64,000 nt of DNA, from the UHGV virus genome UHGV-1364441; one strand, written 5' to 3'. How positions within the stretch are numbered: position 1 is the first letter of the stretch; each line of letters starts with the position of its first letter. The position numbers were made by a program, and so were the translations under genes. A model generated the notes under the pieces. The model did not search any database, was not told the origin of the DNA, and saw nothing but the letters and a program-made list of their open reading frames with translations. Shown piece after piece: positions 186-40,714 of the stretch. The DNA comes from a virus.

Positions 186-344
186 GTTCTCAAATTGTTC
201 TCAAATTGTTCTCACTTCTATCCAAGTGCCCAGCAGGCGATTAAAGATATTCTCAAAACAACCTCAATTATGACTCTTATTTATCTCTAATTATGTGGAT
301 TTTCGATGCCTTCTCTTTTAAAATCATGATTTGATTCTCAAATG
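186..344. repeat. parC-like centromere candidate: direct repeats GTTCTCAAATT x3 (186-215) plus related copies near 249-258 and 333-344, upstream of parM
   Basis: Tandem and dispersed TTCTCAAA repeats read directly; position upstream of the ParM/ParR operon is where type II parC sites lie. Confidence 0.45.
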
Positions 345-367
345 TGTCTCAGAAGTGGAGCAAGAAG

Positions 368-1324
368 ATGCGCATTTTTATCGACGATGGTTCAACAAAT
401 ATCAAAATGCTGTGGGAACACGACGGGGAAACTCGCACGCACATCAGCCCTAACAGCTTTAAGCGCGGATGGTCAGCAACATTTGGTGCTGGCAAGACAT
501 TTAACTATGTCATTGACGACGAAAAGTATTCGTATGATTTGATCTCGCCAGATGTTCTGCCGACGAATAACGTTGAATGGCAATACAGCCCGCTTAACGT
601 CCTGGCTGTTCACCACGCCCTGCTGACAAGTGGCATTGAGCCGCAGGAAGTAGAAATTGTGGTTACGCTGCCACTGGCGGAGTTTTACGACGACGACGCG
701 CAATACAATCTCGATAACATCGAGCGCAAGAAAGCCAGCCTTATGCGCCCCGTCACGCTGAATAAAGGCAATGTATTCACGATTAAGAAAGTCACGGTAC
801 GCCCGGAGTCTATTCCGGCAGGAATTGGCCTGTGCGACAATCTGACCCCTGCCCACTCTGTTCTTATCGTCGATTTGGGTGGAACTACCCTTGATGTTTC
901 AATGGTCGCCGGGCAAATGACGGCAGTTTCCCGTGTTTTTGGCGATTCGAATCTTGGCGTCTCTCTGGTTACCAGGGAAGTAAGGCAAGCACTTGCCAGA
1001 GCCAATACCGAAACGTCAAATTACAATGTCGATCAGCTCATTATTAACCGCCACGATGAAGATTATCTGAACGACAATATCAATGACCCATCAGCTATTG
1101 GTGATGTGAAAAAGGCCATTGCTGCAAGTATTGACCGTCTGCGTACCCGCGTTCTTGATGTGATTGGCGATTTTAAAGGATATACGCATGTCATGGTGAT
1201 CGGTGGCGGCGCACCGCTGGTGGCTGATGCAATTCGCGAGCAAGTTAATATTCGCGATGACCGTTTCTTCGTGGCGGATGACCCGCAACTTGCTCTTGTT
1301 CATGGCCTGAAAGCAATCGGTTAA
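368..1324 (+). CDS. parM: ParM/StbA-like actin-type plasmid segregation ATPase
   Basis: N-terminus MRIFIDDGSTNIK and overall similarity to R1 ParM/StbA; start moved from track 344 to ATG 368 (GGAG about 8 nt upstream). Confidence 0.8.
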   Translation: MRIFIDDGSTNIKMLWEHDGETRTHISPNSFKRGWSATFGAGKTFNYVIDDEKYSYDLISPDVLPTNNVEWQYSPLNVLAVHHALLTSGIEPQEVEIVVTLPLAEFYDDDAQYNLDNIERKKASLMRPVTLNKGNVFTIKKVTVRPESIPAGIGLCDNLTPAHSVLIVDLGGTTLDVSMVAGQMTAVSRVFGDSNLGVSLVTREVRQALARANTETSNYNVDQLIINRHDEDYLNDNINDPSAIGDVKKAIAASIDRLRTRVLDVIGDFKGYTHVMVIGGGAPLVADAIREQVNIRDDRFFVADDPQLALVHGLKAIG

Positions 1325-1336
1325 CGAGGTATGTCC

Positions 1337-1675
1337 ATGTCTCAGGAACGTAAGAAAGTGATGATTTATCTTCGCCCAGGGGCTTATGCCAATGAAAAGG
1401 CGGCGAGCGAGAAGATAAAAAAACATAGCGATATGGCAAGAACTGCATTGTTGGCAGGGCTTGCGCTGGGAGAAGTCGATAGCAGGCTTCCTGGATTACT
1501 GGCTTCCCTGCTGACCGAAGTCAATAACCCGGAGCAGATCCGAAAAATGCTGGCATCCTTCCTGGAATTACCTGCTGCTGTTGAGGAGCACCCTGCCGCC
1601 ATTGAGCCAGCGAAGGAGCAAGTTGTTGCCAAAAGCGCGTCGGCGCGTAATCTTGCTGATTCTCTACCTGATTGA
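1337..1675 (+). CDS. parR: ParR/StbB-like centromere-binding partner of ParM
   Basis: Small protein directly after parM with TALLAGLAL segment resembling ParR; ATG 1337 has better SD spacing than 1331. Confidence 0.55.
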   Translation: MSQERKKVMIYLRPGAYANEKAASEKIKKHSDMARTALLAGLALGEVDSRLPGLLASLLTEVNNPEQIRKMLASFLELPAAVEEHPAAIEPAKEQVVAKSASARNLADSLPD

Positions 1676-1695
1676 TGGTCAAAACTCTATTTTAA

Positions 1696-1718
1696 GGCTG
1701 CAAATTGCAGCCTTTTTT
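1696..1718 (+). terminator. Rho-independent terminator after parMR
   Basis: GGCTGCA-AATT-TGCAGCC hairpin followed by TTTTTT. Confidence 0.6.
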
Positions 1719-1734
1719 GTTCCTTTTTGGTGTT

Positions 1735-1935
1735 AAAATGGCATCAAAGCGACACCAAATGGGAGTCGTTAATGTACTGGTGCATACTTGGTGCTAATTT
1801 AGTGCTATTCAGGCGCAAAACGTGTACCAGTATCCATCGGATTTGATGTTATAGTTCCGGCATTAAGAATGGTGCTATTGCTGTACCGTTGATGTGTAAA
1901 TGTGGTGCCGTTTTAGTGTAAAAATAGAGCCAAAA
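1735..1935. repeat. Iteron-like short repeats (GGTGCTA / GTGTACC / AGTGCTAT / GTGTAAA family) upstream of parA; parC1-like centromere candidate
   Basis: Many closely spaced copies of related 6-8 bp words in both orientations, seen directly. Confidence 0.45.
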
Positions 1936-1953
1936 TAAAGCCGAGGTATGGAC

Positions 1954-2595
1954 ATGATTATCCTGGTAGCAAGTCAAAAGGGAGGCTGTGGCAAGTCAAC
2001 CACCAGCGTCAATATTTGTGCCGAGCTGGCCCGAAAAAACAAAGATGTCGTCTTGATTGATGCTGATAAGCAGGGAACGGCAGCTCGATGGGCGTCAGAC
2101 CGTAATTCGTCCGAAGTGACACCAGTTATTCATTGCGTCCAGAAGTTTGGAAATATTCGAGAAACTCTGCTCGATCTTAACAATCGATATGAATACGTGG
2201 TTGTTGATACCGCAGGTCGTGATAGTAAAGAGATGCGCACAGGTATAACGGCGGCGGATATTCTATTGGTTCCATTCAGGCCGTCTCAGCCAGATTTGGA
2301 CACGCTGGCACACTTTGTTGAGGTGTTTGAAGAGGCTTTGGATCTGATGCCTAATCCCAATATTAAGGCGTGCGCAGTCTTAACGATGGCCCCGTCAAAT
2401 CCGGTTGTGAATGAAGCAAATGAGGCCAAAGAGTATCTGGCAGAATATCCGCAACTGAAATTGCTGAAAACCATTATTCGCGATCGCAAGGTTTACCGCG
2501 ACTGCATGGCTGAAGGAAAGGGTGTTGTTGAGATGGATAACGGTAAGGCGAAAGGTGAAATTCAGATGTTAGTTAAGGAGTTGCTAAGTGATTAA
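1954..2595 (+). CDS. parA: ParA-family partition ATPase (small, type Ib)
   Basis: Deviant Walker A KGGCGKST near N-terminus, ~213 aa; ATG 1954 has 7-nt SD spacing. Confidence 0.85.
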   Translation: MIILVASQKGGCGKSTTSVNICAELARKNKDVVLIDADKQGTAARWASDRNSSEVTPVIHCVQKFGNIRETLLDLNNRYEYVVVDTAGRDSKEMRTGITAADILLVPFRPSQPDLDTLAHFVEVFEEALDLMPNPNIKACAVLTMAPSNPVVNEANEAKEYLAEYPQLKLLKTIIRDRKVYRDCMAEGKGVVEMDNGKAKGEIQMLVKELLSD

Positions 2596-2872
2596 ACGTC
2601 GAGAACCAGCTAAAGCGCCTAAGGCTACTGATCCGGAACTTGAGCGAAGAATTGAAGAGTTCGCCAGCAAAGCGGATTTAATCCCGGATGAAATTACAAC
2701 GGGGAAGGTGCTTGATAAAGATGCGCCGCGCGACTTTAAATCCATACGCGTGAGCTTTAATGAATATGAGTACGGCGTACTCGATGATTTAAGCAAAAAA
2801 CTGAACCGCAGCAAATTGAACTTGATTCGGCATGCAATCCTCATGTTAGCGGAGTCTGAGGAAGCAAAATAA
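2588..2872 (+). CDS. Ribbon-helix-helix centromere-binding protein (ParG/ParB-like partner of ParA)
   Basis: Overlaps parA 3' end (GTG start); C-terminal RHH-like segment IRVSFNEYEYGVLDDLSKKLNRSKLNLIRHAILML after a basic disordered N-terminus. Confidence 0.5.
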   Translation: MIKRREPAKAPKATDPELERRIEEFASKADLIPDEITTGKVLDKDAPRDFKSIRVSFNEYEYGVLDDLSKKLNRSKLNLIRHAILMLAESEEAK

Positions 2873-2894
2873 TGTCTTTCAGGTTGGTTTTAGA

Positions 2895-3000
2895 ACTTAA
2901 AAATTCTTGAATCAAAGGTGTACCAATGTAGCACCGATTTGGTGCACCTTTACATCCTTTTTGGTGCCAATTGTGTACCATATAGCACTGGTTTACTTAT
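2895..3000. repeat. Second iteron-like array downstream of the ParA/RHH operon (parC2-like)
   Basis: GGTGTACC, TGTAGCACC, TGGTGCACC, TGGTGCCA, TGTGTACCA, AGTGCTATA words of the same family as 1735-1935. Confidence 0.4.
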
Positions 3001-3140
3001 GAGCAGAAGTGGGCTTGATGAAAAAGCTCATTATTGAAATAACGATAGAAAGCAATTTCTAATCAACTAGTGGTTGTCAGCCTATTCGGCTTATAAGATC
3101 ATACGCTGTTATACGTTTTTTACGCTTTGAGGAATCCACA

Positions 3141-4802
3141 ATGAGTGAGGCAGAAGCCCGCCCGACTAACTTTATTCGTCAGATCATCGATGAAGATCTG
3201 GCAAGTGGTAAGCACACCACAGTACATACCCGTTTCCCGCCGGAACCGAATGGCTATCTGCATATTGGTCATGCGAAATCTATCTGCCTGAACTTCGGGA
3301 TCGCCCAGGACTATAAAGGCCAGTGCAACCTGCGTTTCGACGACACTAACCCGGTAAAAGAAGATATCGAGTACGTCGAGTCGATTAAAAACGACGTTGA
3401 ATGGTTAGGTTTTCACTGGTCTGGTAACGTCCGTTACTCCTCCGATTATTTTGATCAGCTCCACGCCTATGCTGTTGAACTGATCAACAAAGGCCTGGCG
3501 TATGTTGACGAACTGACGCCGGAACAGATCCGCGAATACCGCGGCACCCTGACGCAGCCGGGTAAAAACAGCCCGTACCGCGATCGCAGCGTTGAAGAGA
3601 ACCTGGCGCTGTTCGAAAAAATGCGTGCCGGTGGTTTTGAAGAAGGTAAAGCCTGCCTGCGTGCGAAAATCGACATGGCGTCGCCGTTTATCGTGATGCG
3701 CGATCCGGTGCTGTACCGCATTAAGTTTGCTGAACACCACCAGACTGGCAACAAGTGGTGCATCTACCCGATGTACGACTTCACCCACTGCATCAGCGAT
3801 GCGCTGGAAGGTATTACGCACTCTCTGTGTACGCTTGAGTTCCAGGACAACCGTCGCCTGTACGACTGGGTGCTGGACAACATCACCATTCCTGTTCACC
3901 CGCGCCAGTACGAATTCTCGCGCCTGAATCTGGAATACACTGTGATGTCCAAGCGTAAGCTGAACCTGCTGGTGACCGACAAGCACGTTGAAGGCTGGGA
4001 TGACCCGCGTATGCCGACCATTTCCGGTCTGCGTCGTCGTGGTTACACTGCGGCTTCTATTCGTGAGTTCTGCAAACGCATCGGCGTGACCAAGCAGGAC
4101 AACACCATTGAGATGGCGTCGCTGGAATCCTGCATCCGTGAAGATCTCAACGAAAATGCGCCGCGCGCAATGGCGGTTATCGATCCGGTGAAACTGGTCA
4201 TCGAAAACTATCAGGGAGAAGGCGAAATGGTCACCATGCCGAACCATCCAAACAAACCGGAAATGGGTAGCCGTCAGGTGCCGTTTAGCGGTGAGATTTG
4301 GATCGACCGCGCCGATTTCCGAGAAGAAGCTAACAAGCAGTACAAACGTCTGGTGCTGGGTAAAGAAGTGCGTCTGCGTAATGCTTACGTCATTAAGGCT
4401 GAACGCGTGGAGAAAGATGCCGAAGGCAATATCACCACCATCTTCTGTACTTATGACGCCGACACCTTAAGCAAAGATCCGGCAGATGGTCGTAAAGTGA
4501 AAGGCGTTATTCACTGGGTGAGCGCGGCACATGCGCTGCCGGTTGAAATCCGCCTGTACGATCGTCTGTTCAGCGTGCCGAACCCAGGTGCTGCTGATGA
4601 TTTCCTGTCGGTGATTAACCCGGAATCGCTGGTGATCAAACAGGGTTTTGCTGAACCGTCGCTGAAAGAAGCGGTAGCGGGTAAAGCATTCCAGTTTGAG
4701 CGTGAAGGTTATTTCTGCCTCGACAGCCGCCATTCTACGGCGGAAAAACCGGTATTTAACCGCACCGTTGGGCTGCGTGATACCTGGGCGAAGTTAGGTT
4801 AA
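3141..4802 (+). CDS. glnS: Glutaminyl-tRNA synthetase (class I aaRS), full length 553 aa
   Basis: HIGH motif (HIGHAKS), KMSKS-type motif (VMSKR), and end-to-end resemblance to enterobacterial GlnRS as I recall it. Confidence 0.95.
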
Positions 4803-4819
4803 TAGGTATTTCGCCACAT

Positions 4820-4853
4820 AAAAAAGTAAACGCCGCTACTGCGGCGTTTTTTA
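4820..4853. terminator. Bidirectional rho-independent terminator between glnS and the convergent Dam-like gene
   Basis: CGCCGC-TACT-GCGGCG hairpin flanked by an A-run upstream and T-run downstream. Confidence 0.7.
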
Positions 4854-5756
4854 CTTCATTATTGCAATTATATCGTTAGCAACTACACGTGTTGACGCCT
4901 TGCAGGACACCGACCGTCTGGCTGCCATATGATGTACTTTAAACCCGTTTCCTTCATATAGTTCACGGATGTTTGGCGCACCACTATTTGTTATCACTAC
5001 CTTAGCGCCGCGCTGGTGGGCTTCCACCAATAGAGATACCAGCCGTTTCTGTTCGTCGAAACGGAAGCTATTTCCTGAATAACTGGTAAACCCTTCTGTA
5101 TCCGGCAGCGGTTCATACGGCGGATCGCAAAAAATCACATCGCCTTCACCAGCCGCCTCGATGACGCCAGCAAAGTCACCTGATACAAAGGACGTGTTTT
5201 TGAGTACGTCATCAGCCAAAAATGCCTCCATCTCTGCATGTGGGAAGTAGGGCGCTTTGTATTTGCCATACCCCACGTTGAACTCGCCATTTTGGTTGTA
5301 CCGCGTTACGCCATTAAAACAGTGCCGATTAAGGTACAAAAAGGCGGCAGCATGATGTAGCTGGTCATACTTTCCTCTGTTAAATGCCTCACGCACTTCG
5401 AGGTAAGCGTCAGCGTTGTTGTAATTTTTGAAAAAACTATATGACAGCGTGACGAGCGAATGTCCTTCTCGCTGCAATGTCTGATAGAAGTTAATCAGGT
5501 CACCGTTAATATCATTAAGCAGGTTGTGGCGAAATCCTGCATTCGTAAATACGGAACCGCCACCAACGAATGGTTCTATTAACCGCTTACCGTGTGGTAG
5601 ATGCTCAAGCACTGTAGGCAATTCTGAGAATTTACCACCTACCCATTTGAATATCGGACGCTCATATTCATCCGGAGTCCGAATGGTGCGCATATAGCTA
5701 ATTTCAGCCATCGTATCCTGTTTTTCTATGGCTATGCGTGCTATAGATTTACTCAT
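4851..5756 (-). CDS. DNA N6-adenine methyltransferase (Dam/T4 Dam-like)
   Basis: FKWVGGK, EPFVGGGSV and DPPY motifs; ATG 5756 preceded by AAGGGGG RBS; overlaps the upstream gene stop by 8 nt. Confidence 0.8.
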   Translation of the reverse strand: MSKSIARIAIEKQDTMAEISYMRTIRTPDEYERPIFKWVGGKFSELPTVLEHLPHGKRLIEPFVGGGSVFTNAGFRHNLLNDINGDLINFYQTLQREGHSLVTLSYSFFKNYNNADAYLEVREAFNRGKYDQLHHAAAFLYLNRHCFNGVTRYNQNGEFNVGYGKYKAPYFPHAEMEAFLADDVLKNTSFVSGDFAGVIEAAGEGDVIFCDPPYEPLPDTEGFTSYSGNSFRFDEQKRLVSLLVEAHQRGAKVVITNSGAPNIRELYEGNGFKVHHMAARRSVSCKASTRVVANDIIAIMK

Positions 5757-6501
5757 AGAGCACCCCCTTATTCGCTTCGAAAACTGCCTTTGCGAATCCA
5801 TGTGGAGTAGCACTTCGAAAATTAGCCCTGTCAGGCCCTGGTGGCGCGGCATGGATTCTGTTATCTGGCTTGCCTAATGATTCGTCCATTAGGGCATCAG
5901 GCATGACAAAGCCCTGGCCGCTCCAGAGGCATGTTTTTTTGGTGTAGTTATCTTCCTGACAATATGCAGTGAAGAAGTAAGGGTGAAAGATGTGATCTGG
6001 CTTACGCCAGAATGTCGATATTTTGCTGACCGGATTTTCAATCATGTACGGACAACCGATCATCTTTGCAATGTCATAACACTGCCAGACAACCTGCATT
6101 GCTTTGAACTGGAAAACCGGATCTTTATTAGCCTTGTCCGAAAACCAGCGCGCGCCGGAAACAGCCAGGTCAGTACACGGTGGGAACCCGGCCAGAAACA
6201 CGATGCGCTGCAAATTCTTACGGAGAAAAGCGTATACTTCATCGCTATCGATGATCGCACTAATACGCGTCAGAACGGCACCTGATTGCATCCGCTCGTC
6301 ACTGGTCGATAAGTGCTGTGGATCGACGATAGCGGCATCGACACCGTATTCCAGCCAGGGGGCAACCATTGCCCCCGTAAAATCACAAAGACTCACAACA
6401 AGCGGTCGGTTATTATCGTTCTGCTTCACCGCCAATGGCCTCCACCAGCGCGTTAAACAGTGCAGATAATTCGCCCGTAAAGAGCACGAAATCAGCATCA
6501 A
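5749..6501 (-). CDS. DNA cytosine-C5 methyltransferase-like protein (compact, ~250 aa)
   Basis: AGFPPC (PCQ-like catalytic Cys motif) and ENP (ENV-like) motifs; much shorter than canonical Dcm, so function uncertain; 5' end overlaps the rdgC 3' end. Confidence 0.5.
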
Positions 6502-7318
6502 ATCGTTGTGCTACATCCTCCCGGTCGATATCGTCGTTCTGGTCATAGAGATCATCACAGAATGTCAGGGCTTTGATACTCATATCATCGTTGACTCTGA
6601 ACGACGCACGGTCCATCCAGTTAATTGCAACGGTCGTAGCTACTTTCCCCGCCTCAATGTGAGACATAATCTCGTCGGACTGTAGATCAACTTTGTTGCA
6701 GCGAACGGCACCACCATTATCGAGCAGACCCTTTAATGTGGCGTCTTCACCTGCTGTAAATCCGGCAGGGAAGCCGCTTTTAAACCACTCGGTCATTGTA
6801 ATCTCCAGCGGTTCGCGTGGTGTGAATGGAATGACAGGCAGGCTGCCGAGCGACTTTCGCAATAAAGCCAGCTGGTCCTCTGCCTTTTTGGCGCTGCTTG
6901 CCTCAACGAATACCAGATGGTTGCTGCGGTCGATCAGGATTTTGGCGAGTGATTTTCTCGTGAACGCGCGAGGCAAAAGTGAATGCAGGACTTCATCTTT
7001 AAGACTGTCTCTTTCCGTTTTCTTCAGCTTGCGGGCTTGCTCTTCTTCGAGTTTCAGGACTTTTTTCTGCAACTCTTCCTTGAGCACCTGCGAGGGGAGA
7101 ATTTTTTCTTCTCGCTTATGCTGTATTAGCAGAAAACCCTGGTATTCATGGGTGAGGTTGTCACCAAGAACAGGTGTCCAACCGACTTTAGCTGTGTCCT
7201 GAGAACCGCAAGGAGTAAACACGAATTTGCTAAGAGCATCGGATACTTCTGCGGCACTCCAGTTAACTTCACGTGAAAGACGATAGATGAAGATGTTTTT
7301 GAAAGCGACTGATCTCAT
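6413..7318 (-). CDS. rdgC: Recombination-associated protein RdgC homolog
   Basis: 301 aa with RdgC-like blocks along its length ([32 protein letters not shown]). Confidence 0.85.
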
Positions 7319-39519: not shown

Positions 39520-39595
39520 TGGTGGCCCCTACCGGACTTGAACCGGTGACCGTGCGATTATGAGTCGCCAGCTCTAACCACTGAGCTAAAGGGCC
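39520..39595 (-). tRNA. tRNA-Ile2 (anticodon CAU, lysidine type) or tRNA-Met-like
   Basis: Manual fold: 7-bp acceptor stem, CCA encoded, anticodon loop CUCAUAA; close to E. coli ileX; one mismatch at the base of the anticodon stem. Confidence 0.75.
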
Positions 39596-39604
39596 AGATT
39601 ACTG

Positions 39605-39733
39605 TTAATTCCGCTTACGCTTTTTGCCAGAACCGCGTAAGGCTTTTGCCGCTTGCTCGATCCCATATGCAACCACCAGCAGAAATAAAAATGTCCAACC
39701 AGGGTTCTTATCGGCAAAGGCCCAAAAATCCAT
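39605..39733 (-). CDS. Possible 42-aa membrane peptide (MDFWAFADKNPGWTFLFLLVVAYGIEQAAKALRGSGKKRKRN)
   Basis: Own translation; one TM helix plus basic tail; weak RBS. Confidence 0.25.
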   Translation of the reverse strand: MDFWAFADKNPGWTFLFLLVVAYGIEQAAKALRGSGKKRKRN

Positions 39734-40007
39734 CACTTGCAGCTACCTTTTAAGACAAAACGCCATTGCTGTTAGATTGCGGTGCCTGGTGCCTCCAGGT
39801 GACGTTAACCAGTTAACAATTAACGCCGGGATGTTTGACTTCACTATTGAGGAAAATTGTTTTAACTGTTCCGCGTGCGCTTAGCCGCATTCACCGCAAT
39901 GGTAAGAGCACTTGGCTGGCTGGGCGGCGATGACGCCTGTACGCATTTGGTGATCCGGTTCTGCTTCCGGCATTCGCTTAATTAGCCAAATACTCTTAAC
40001 GTTGCGC

Positions 40008-40094
40008 TGGCGGAGAGTAATGGAATCGAACCATCATCGCTTGCGCAATGGGACGGTTTTCAAGACCGCTTGAGCACCATGCTCCCTACTCTCC
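40008..40094 (-). tRNA. tRNA-Ser (anticodon UGA), type II with long variable arm
   Basis: Manual fold: 7-bp acceptor, 3-bp D-stem, anticodon loop CUUGAAA, variable-arm hairpin with GCAA loop, T-loop TTCGATT, CCA encoded. Confidence 0.65.
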
Positions 40095-40478
40095 GGCCGT
40101 TGTGGTGGCCGGTACTGAATCTCCGGCATACGGTGCAGCCAATTAGGACTACGGACGATCACCGCTCGCGAAAGGGAAGGTTTGCGGCCGCATTTCCCTA
40201 ACATCCAAGAAAGCTATCGCATCAGTCTGCGAATCCACCACAACGTTGAGAACACTGGTTGTCACGCTGCAACGCAACATTTATTCGTAGATTGGGATAT
40301 GACCCCGTTACGTCAGTGTTCTCAACGTTGTAGTACCGGTTACGGTTCCGGCCAGGCCTCTTCCTCAACGGGGTATTCTCCATACGGACTACCGTTTATT
40401 GGTCGTTCCTGCGGTTTATGTTGTGAAGCCAGATGCTTATCTTCTGGTTGCTTCAAAGAGCTGCACTTCATCACAACG

Positions 40479-40552
40479 GTAAGGGTACTTCGTAGGGATT
40501 CGAACCCTCTGCCAAGCACGGCGATCTCCGACGTCGCAAAATACCCTTACCT
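40479..40552 (-). other. tRNA-like fragment or structured element (T-arm-like GGGTTCGAATCCC inside a 10-bp closing stem)
   Basis: Does not fold as a canonical cloverleaf (no D or anticodon arm in register, no CCA). Confidence 0.3.
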
Positions 40553-40559
40553 GTTGTGT

Positions 40560-40635
40560 TGGTGCCGATTAACGGACTCGAACCGCTGACATCCTGCTTA
40601 CAAGGCAGGCGCTCTACCAACTGAGCTAAACCGGC
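40560..40635 (-). tRNA. tRNA-Thr (anticodon UGU)
   Basis: Manual fold: canonical cloverleaf, anticodon loop CUUGUAA, CCA encoded. Confidence 0.85.
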
Positions 40636-40637
40636 AT

Positions 40638-40714
40638 TGGCGATGGTGGGTGGATTCGAACCACCGACCGACAGCTTAGAAGGCTGCTGCTCTATCCTAC
40701 TGAGCTACACCATC
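40638..40714 (-). tRNA. tRNA-Arg (anticodon UCU)
   Basis: Manual fold: canonical cloverleaf, anticodon loop CUUCUAA, CCA encoded; 2 nt from tRNA-Thr. Confidence 0.85.

Follow-up and report, generated by a model that had tools for sequence, protein, structure and literature searches.

Why does a phage carry a complete aminoacyl-tRNA synthetase gene, and where did that gene come from? We addressed these questions for glnS, the gene for glutaminyl-tRNA synthetase (GlnRS), in the UHGV virus genome UHGV-1364441, of which a stretch of 64,000 nucleotides was analysed as a whole and is referred to below as the window. The analysis followed up an earlier note that had been made from the letters of this stretch. 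We consider it probable that the gene is an auxiliary, Dam-repressible GlnRS moron of most D6-like phage-plasmids. On this reading, a chromosomal glnS of Escherichia type, copied from promoter to terminator, would have lodged between a ParA/RHH partition operon and a phage Dam gene. A single acquisition, early in the history of the family, would have brought in the cassette from a donor in which the ancestral glnS terminator was still present. Purifying selection would since have preserved the cassette, and homologous recombination with host chromosomal glnS would have patched it time and again.

Judged by its product, the window gene belongs to the GlnRS family. The NCBIfam equivalog profile TIGR00440 (glnS) scored 1067.6 bits against the window protein, with a cut-off of 425.8, and was aligned over positions 1–524 of its 524. 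Both class I signatures were located (Table 1), in agreement with the earlier note, which had described a complete GlnRS gene with HIGH and KMSKS-type motifs. When compared with the crystallised E. coli GlnRS (PDB 1o0b), 550 of the 553 residues were identical (99.5%), I112V, D510E and V552L being the only substitutions, and the solved enzyme's residues for catalysis and for binding of the acceptor stem and anticodon were kept. The C-terminus reads AKLG* in the window and AKVGE* in K-12, which leaves the window protein one residue shorter. None of the three substitutions falls on what we take to be a catalytic or tRNA-identity residue. The GC content of glnS was 0.528, against 0.462 and 0.478 for the flanking genes.

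The element that carries the gene is, by its gene content and order, a member of the D6-like (P1-related) phage-plasmids. The window was 96.1% identical to Escherichia phage D6 over 2.4 kb and had about 20 genes in the same order as D6, including P1-like capsid, baseplate and tail genes, parM/stbB, parA and higBA, which bears out the P1-like phage-plasmid backbone proposed before. Around the cassette, D6 and pYU39_89 have the same gene order as the window (ParM/StbB, ParA, small open reading frame (ORF), glnS, convergent Dam, second methylase, RdgC/HrdC, baseplate), and their promoter, AKLG* C-terminus and terminator are those of the window. They differ from it only allelically, a K-12-type conversion tract being theirs and D510E the window's. 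The D6 gene, orf62, is annotated in GenBank as "glutaminyl-tRNA synthetase, similar to E. coli GlnS". The best match to the window region was E. coli RL465 plasmid II (99.9%). The ParA/RHH module of the window is of a minority type, about 82–84% identical to the common D6-like one. A 2.5-kb query spanning both cassette junctions, counted when covered by at least 80%, was recovered from 98 PLSDB plasmids of Escherichia, Salmonella and Shigella and from 70 complete E. coli genomes. Among the 5,426 complete E. coli genomes searched, the D6-type par locus was found on 89 plasmids and 0 chromosomes, a count that describes the relatives and not the replicon state of the window itself.

The presence of glnS in D6-like genomes is already a published trait: as stated in a passage of Silva et al. 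2019 (PMC6799933), citing Gilcrease & Casjens 2018, it was present in all of those examined. No functional study of D6-like glnS was found in the literature. The earlier note had observed this cargo correctly, although it partly misinterpreted something already described. Its remark that a synthetase is unusual on such an element was confirmed, since a search of 50,697 phage records found GlnRS in D6 and otherwise only in two ~640-kb uncultured phages, in contigs of Acinetobacter phages and in short fragments, metagenomic or partial. Like phage morons and other translation cargo (P1-like tRNAs, huge-phage synthetases), the window cassette is a self-contained unit with host-like composition and variable presence; unlike the usual phage translation cargo, it carries a full aminoacyl-tRNA synthetase, which is rare in phages. 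The four tRNAs that had been noticed on the element were recovered as well (Table 1), and no tRNA-Gln was found among these window tRNAs. The CAT tRNA could be of the Ile2 type. The published tRNAs of pYU39_89 are Asn, Thr, Ser and Met, so that one anticodon call differs from the window, by tool or by element.

The layout of the locus suggested how much had been captured. As the earlier note had placed it, glnS lies between the ParA/RHH operon and a convergent Dam-like gene, with its own upstream region and a bidirectional terminator (Table 1). At the left junction, in an alignment with the K-12 nagE-glnS-chiP region, chromosomal homology begins about 12 nt 5′ of the −35 element, near window position 3062. 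The AT-rich spacer between the RHH stop and this point showed no homology to the nagE-glnS intergenic DNA of E. coli, and the GC content over 2873–3140 was 0.37. From its repeats, the spacer is probably a partition centromere or operator-like site plus filler. Repeats of the GGTGYACC/TGTACCA type were also observed upstream of parA (1721–1764, 1775–1832 and 1780–1804/1894–1918), and the repeats around parA/RHH are probably where this partition system has its centromere or operator. Within the predicted −10 element lies a Dam site, GATC, at 3097, and the alignment revealed that it is kept in all D6-like glnS alleles.

At the right junction, homology with E. coli seems to stop three codons before the glnS stop. 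The intrinsic terminator that follows is positioned to serve both glnS and the convergent Dam gene, and the terminator stem of plasmid glnS is AAACGCCGC-loop-GCGGCGTTTTTT. A pattern scan detected the same hairpin 3′ of chromosomal glnS in 17 of 21 species loci, the genera being Salmonella, Citrobacter, Enterobacter, Kluyvera, Trabulsiella, Atlantibacter, Buttiauxella, Cedecea and others. It was not found 3′ of glnS in any of the seven aligned Escherichia chromosomes (six E. coli, one E. ruysiae), which have REP-like sequence instead. Because the plasmid hairpin is the enterobacterial chromosomal glnS hairpin, the captured unit would run from the promoter through the native terminator, and the donor is best described as one with an Escherichia-like coding sequence (CDS) and the ancestral 3′ end still present. 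The E. coli chromosomal glnS resembles the window in its enzyme (three substitutions), its −35 and −10 elements with GATC in the −10, and its 5′ untranslated region (UTR); it differs in 2.4–3.5% nucleotide divergence, in the last three codons, in its nagE-glnS-chiP context and in the REP elements on its 3′ side, where the window has the ancestral hairpin.

We further examined where the cassette is present and where it is absent. In the complete E. coli genomes, plasmid-borne glnS was found at 81 places as against 89 par loci, so that about 9% of D6-like plasmids are without glnS, which qualifies the published statement that all D6-like genomes carry it. In the glnS-less relatives that were inspected, namely pPSS-08-1_2, p1_000200 (par 98% identical to that of the window) and a plasmid of S. 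dysenteriae 96-265, about 143 bp containing related ACCGAWTTGGTRCC-type repeat motifs come after the RHH stop, together with another terminator, GC-rich (AAAAAGCCCCnnnnGGGGCTTTTT) and of the form AAAAAGCCCC-loop-GGGGCTTTTT, and then the Dam gene. The right edge is set near 4862 by the last ~4 Dam codons, which are not the same in relatives with and without glnS. The swapped module extends from the RHH stop (2872) to ~4862, both edges being approximate, and the interval of 2895–4853 proposed in the earlier note agrees with it. Exact insertion boundaries or target duplications were not found at the empty sites, where the spacer is replaced and not interrupted. With its own promoter and terminator, its presence/absence polymorphism and a GC content unlike that of its neighbours, the cassette qualifies as a moron as far as sequence can tell.

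The host copy was assessed in the same genomes. A query of chromosomal nagE-glnS with its downstream region was covered by at least 80% in 5420 of 5426, and every E. coli genome with any glnS match contained a near-full-length copy. It is thus almost certain that carriers have retained a chromosomal glnS of their own, a handful of doubtful cases at most being excepted, in a count that is population-wide and does not pair carriers with their own chromosomes. The point raised in the earlier note, whether the host keeps its chromosomal copy, is answered for the population and not carrier by carrier.

What would such a gene do for its carrier? A competent GlnRS would charge host tRNA-Gln, and it would have to, because the element is without a tRNA-Gln of its own. 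Transcription would start from the unchanged, Dam-methylation-repressible sigma-70 glnS promoter. Deletion of dam or mutation of the promoter Dam sites derepresses chromosomal glnS (Plumbridge & Soll 1987, as cited in PMC12369378), and RNA-seq of a dam mutant gave a log2 fold change of +1.08 for glnS (PMC12369378). In a lysogen, the single-copy plasmid would add a second, low-copy glnS and roughly double the dosage. During lytic replication, un- or hemimethylated DNA would derepress the promoter and provide extra charging capacity. The plasmid copy would then be expressed under Dam control and be of benefit as an auxiliary or back-up synthetase. The retention of glnS in most D6-like members implies some benefit.

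Several points weigh against this reading. The benefit of a plasmid glnS copy is conjecture. The gene is accessory and dispensable for the phage-plasmid life cycle, because some D6-like plasmids are without it. A raised glutamine demand was not found in the window ORFs, whose Gln usage is an ordinary 4.0%. Finally, the high conservation of glnS relative to its flanks (97–99% vs 82–92%) could reflect recombination as much as selection on the element.

Of the other explanations, the one that survives best, and which we nevertheless regard as unlikely, is essential-gene addiction. In this scenario, as for cysS on pBT1, the plasmid glnS would be the main source of GlnRS, the chromosomal copy would be down and plasmid loss would be penalised; in a variant, the neighbouring phage Dam would over-methylate and repress the host glnS promoter, and the plasmid copy would compensate. 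The idea was raised explicitly by Silva et al. (PMC6799933). In its precedent, the low-copy enterobacterial plasmid pBT1 of Salmonella Typhimurium ST313 (Canals et al. 2019, PMC6785131), a complete cysS coexists with an intact chromosomal copy; the pBT1 CysRS is reported to be essential, to be expressed in preference and to have lower activity, chromosomal cysS being down-regulated. The window similarly has a complete synthetase gene on a plasmid, adjoining partition loci and a Dam gene and with a promoter of the Dam-repressed type, and a Citrobacter conjugative plasmid has cysS and glnS beside higBA. In contrast to pBT1, the D6-like elements are phage-plasmids, and their GlnRS is 99.5% identical to the host enzyme. 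Addiction is further opposed by the intact chromosomal nagE-glnS locus described above and by the near-full-length copy wherever glnS matches. The plasmid and chromosomal promoters are nearly identical and would be repressed alike by Dam. The glnS-less D6-like plasmids also carry the Dam gene, yet they are maintained, and the element already has higBA while relatives have phd-doc.

Complete glnS genes were observed on other plasmids as well. Those of Citrobacter cronae p.S175-1.4 and of an Enterobacter ludwigii CM-TZ4 plasmid have, like the window, a promoter and the same type of terminator; they are about 87% identical to the window in nucleotides and closer to their own genera, which marks them as independent acquisitions. 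In p.S175-1.4, a conjugative MOBP/MPF_I plasmid, cysS and glnS are adjacent, just downstream of higB/higA (1510–6742), and an independent acquisition of this glnS is indicated by its 89.9% identity to the C. murliniae copy. On the CM-TZ4 plasmid unnamed2 (1788–7002), glnS has two tyrosine-type integrase genes on one side and the type I toxin gene dinQ on the other, an arrangement that suggests an integrative island.

Less probable still is that glnS and the phage Dam gene form a functional pair, an epigenetically wired module for synthetase addiction or boost. If this were true, phage Dam would fully methylate the −10 GATC of both glnS promoters and lower the host GlnRS supply, and the plasmid copy would restore GlnRS in lysogens and burst on under-methylated replicating phage DNA. 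Element loss or superinfection dynamics would be coupled to Gln-tRNA charging, and ongoing gene conversion, through which glnS alleles would also pass between strains, would be a by-product.

Such conversion was apparent when plasmid and chromosomal alleles were compared. Alleles were compared in a 23-sequence alignment of plasmid and chromosomal glnS, in which E. ruysiae represented the non-coli Escherichia chromosomes, E. fergusonii, E. albertii and E. marmotae lying outside the sample. The D6 allele was 95.75% identical to K-12 and 98.25% to the window over CDS nt 1–800, and 99.05% to K-12 and 95.6% to the window over nt 1084–1610. D6, pYU39_89 and pNCYU-25-82-5 are of plasmid type up to nt 800–1080, of K-12 type up to ~nt 1604 and again of plasmid type at the extreme end. 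The mosaic pattern was significant in a max-chi-square permutation (p<0.001), and neighbour-joining trees of the two glnS halves were incongruent. From the incongruent halves and the mosaic sites, we conclude that plasmid and chromosomal glnS recombine homologously. E. coli-type tracts were found in Salmonella-borne plasmid glnS, and no Salmonella-type conversion tracts were detected in Salmonella-borne plasmids, the best 150-nt window showing 92.7% identity. Across D6-like plasmids, glnS was 97–99% identical, ParA/RHH 82–84% and the baseplate genes 90–92%; recombination with chromosomes plus selection accounts for the greater conservation of glnS over its flanks.

The ratios of nonsynonymous to synonymous divergence (dN/dS) were 0.009–0.029 for plasmid–plasmid and plasmid–chromosome pairs and 0.006–0.009 for chromosome–chromosome pairs, which puts the GlnRS protein under strong, perhaps slightly relaxed, purifying selection and lends indirect support to aminoacylation of tRNA-Gln. 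The copies of pSa1423-160k and pNCYU-25-82-5 were excluded from the protein and dN/dS analyses on account of indels and a frameshift. In these sparsely annotated records, glnS of the Salmonella plasmid pSa1423-160k has many indels and that of pNCYU-25-82-5 a frameshift, defects that look like long-read assembly errors and not like true pseudogenes.

The conversion tracts could also be taken to mean that glnS is a 1.7-kb homology patch for recombination with the chromosome (integration, rescue or marker exchange), enzyme activity being incidental. Apart from the clear tracts, two chromosomes with a plasmid-type signature tract are in keeping with this explanation. We find it very improbable, since the absence of the D6-like par locus from all chromosomes means that stable integration was not seen, dN/dS values of 0.01–0.03 indicate that the protein itself is selected, and an intact promoter and terminator are retained. 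Campbell-type cointegrates, in which D6-like elements would be integrated at glnS, were considered and rejected: the par locus is never chromosomal, and the signature chromosome examined has its native locus.

The age of the cassette was then read from allele divergence. In a sample of 60 spread over the ranking of all 5,500 matching records, identity to the window CDS was 96.5–97.6% for the chromosomal glnS of E. coli. None of the 5,500 matches was less than 95% identical, and 19 records were at least 99% identical, the only such record among those listed being a plasmid. In the 23-sequence alignment, plasmid alleles were 93.9–99.9% identical among themselves and the sampled E. coli chromosomal alleles 97.4–100%. 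The window CDS was 99.9% identical to pRL465-II and pF719-4, 97.5% to D6, 95.6% to E. ruysiae and 84.9% to Salmonella. Plasmid and K-12 alleles are set apart by 58 SNPs. Synonymous divergence (dS) of the window allele was 0.166 from K-12, 0.107 from strain E1, 0.218 from pTB423 and 0.221 from pEF-4, and that between pTB423 and pEF-4 was 0.306. The divergent E. fergusonii plasmid pEF-4 has glnS at the same locus, with flanks too diverged for megablast. Five nucleotide sites, with the signature 87T/246T/334G/336T/348C, and I112V are common to all sampled plasmid alleles, pEF-4 included, and absent from the seven sampled Escherichia chromosomes; the AKLG* end was present in every sampled plasmid allele save that of pEF-4. 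A 46-nt signature tract was found on 70 plasmids and only 2 chromosomes of the 5,426 E. coli genomes. One of the two, the chromosome of E. coli 2020CK-00188, has its glnS in the native nagE-glnS-chiP context, with a short mosaic stretch of plasmid-type nucleotides around codon 112; this stretch was either converted by a plasmid allele or survives from the donor lineage. Taken together, the shared sites with I112V, the signature tract, the dS values, the retained ancestral terminator and the diversity of plasmid alleles point to one old acquisition rather than recent capture.

Recent capture from the current host chromosome, which the earlier note had favoured, would explain the near-identity of the protein to E. 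coli GlnRS and the long tracts in some plasmid alleles that are near-identical to common chromosomal alleles. Its description of the product as essentially identical to chromosomal GlnRS is borne out by the protein, with three substitutions and one residue fewer, and not by the DNA. The identity distribution and the dS to E. coli alleles (0.11–0.17) rule out recent capture, to which we leave hardly any probability: plasmid alleles are more diverse than chromosomal ones, the terminator is ancestral and differs from the 3′ end of E. coli glnS, the 5′ and 3′ ends are plasmid-specific and family-wide, Salmonella-borne copies included, and pEF-4 has the gene at the same locus. Also suggested before, an assembly chimera of chromosomal glnS reads joined to phage-plasmid contigs, which had in its favour solely that a synthetase gene is, a priori, an odd thing for a phage to carry, was ruled out as practically impossible by the recurrence of both junctions, non-chromosomal in sequence, in D6, the 98 PLSDB plasmids and the 70 complete E. 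coli assemblies.

These results indicate that a complete aminoacyl-tRNA synthetase, an unusual cargo for a tailed phage, is kept in most of a widespread phage-plasmid family of E. coli, Shigella and Salmonella, and that the plasmid glnS copy is old and selectively maintained and no recent accident. To the published trait we add the purifying selection, the gene-conversion mosaics, the empty sites and the intact chromosomal locus. A Dam-sensitive glnS promoter has been kept beside a phage Dam gene, and the natural glnS-less relatives are ready-made controls. Exchange of glnS between plasmid and chromosome matters for typing or phylogeny by glnS alleles.

Table 1 Features of the glnS locus and its surroundings in the window
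Feature	Position	Strand	Remarks
glnS CDS	3141–4802	+	553 aa, class I glutaminyl-tRNA synthetase
HIGH motif	3261–3272		Residues 41–44; class I signature
VMSKR motif	3942–3956		Residues 268–272; GlnRS form of KMSKS, class I signature
I112V	3474–3476		Relative to K-12 GlnRS
D510E	4668–4670		Relative to K-12 GlnRS
V552L	4794–4796		Relative to K-12 GlnRS
Native glnS promoter and 5′ UTR	3062–3140	+	Sigma-70-like; Shine-Dalgarno GAGGAA
Predicted −35 element	3074–3079		TTGTCA; promoter scan; 17-nt spacer to −10
Predicted −10 element	3097–3102		GATCAT; promoter scan
Bidirectional intrinsic terminator	4828–4849		AAACGCCGC-tact-GCGGCGTTT; A-run before, T-run after
AT-rich spacer, RHH stop to glnS promoter	2873–3061	+	Non-chromosomal, ~190 bp
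13-nt inverted repeat in spacer	2914–2926/2939–2951		
~27-nt direct repeat in spacer	2913–2940, 2968–2994		GGTGYACC/TGTACCA motifs
ParM-like gene	344–1324		Upstream of glnS
Partner ORF of ParM-like gene	1331–1675		Upstream of glnS
ParA-type ATPase	1948–2595	+	Left-hand context
Small RHH-type ORF, ParA partner	2588–2872	+	Its stop is the left edge of the swapped module
Dam-family DNA adenine methyltransferase ORF	4851–5852	−	Convergent; context, outside the cassette; stop codon 4851–4853
tRNA cluster (Met-CAT, Ser-TGA, Thr-TGT, Arg-TCT)	39520–40714	−	ARAGORN

Beyond the cassette, a second methylase-like ORF (5749–6501, minus strand) overlaps the Dam-like ORF by about 100 nt in another frame. 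In relatives, this locus is annotated as two genes (orf63 and orf64 of D6), as one fused 2076-nt Dam-family gene (FDAARGOS_1059 plasmid) or as a pseudogene without its N-terminus. The gene structure over 4851–6501 is polymorphic or frameshift-prone.

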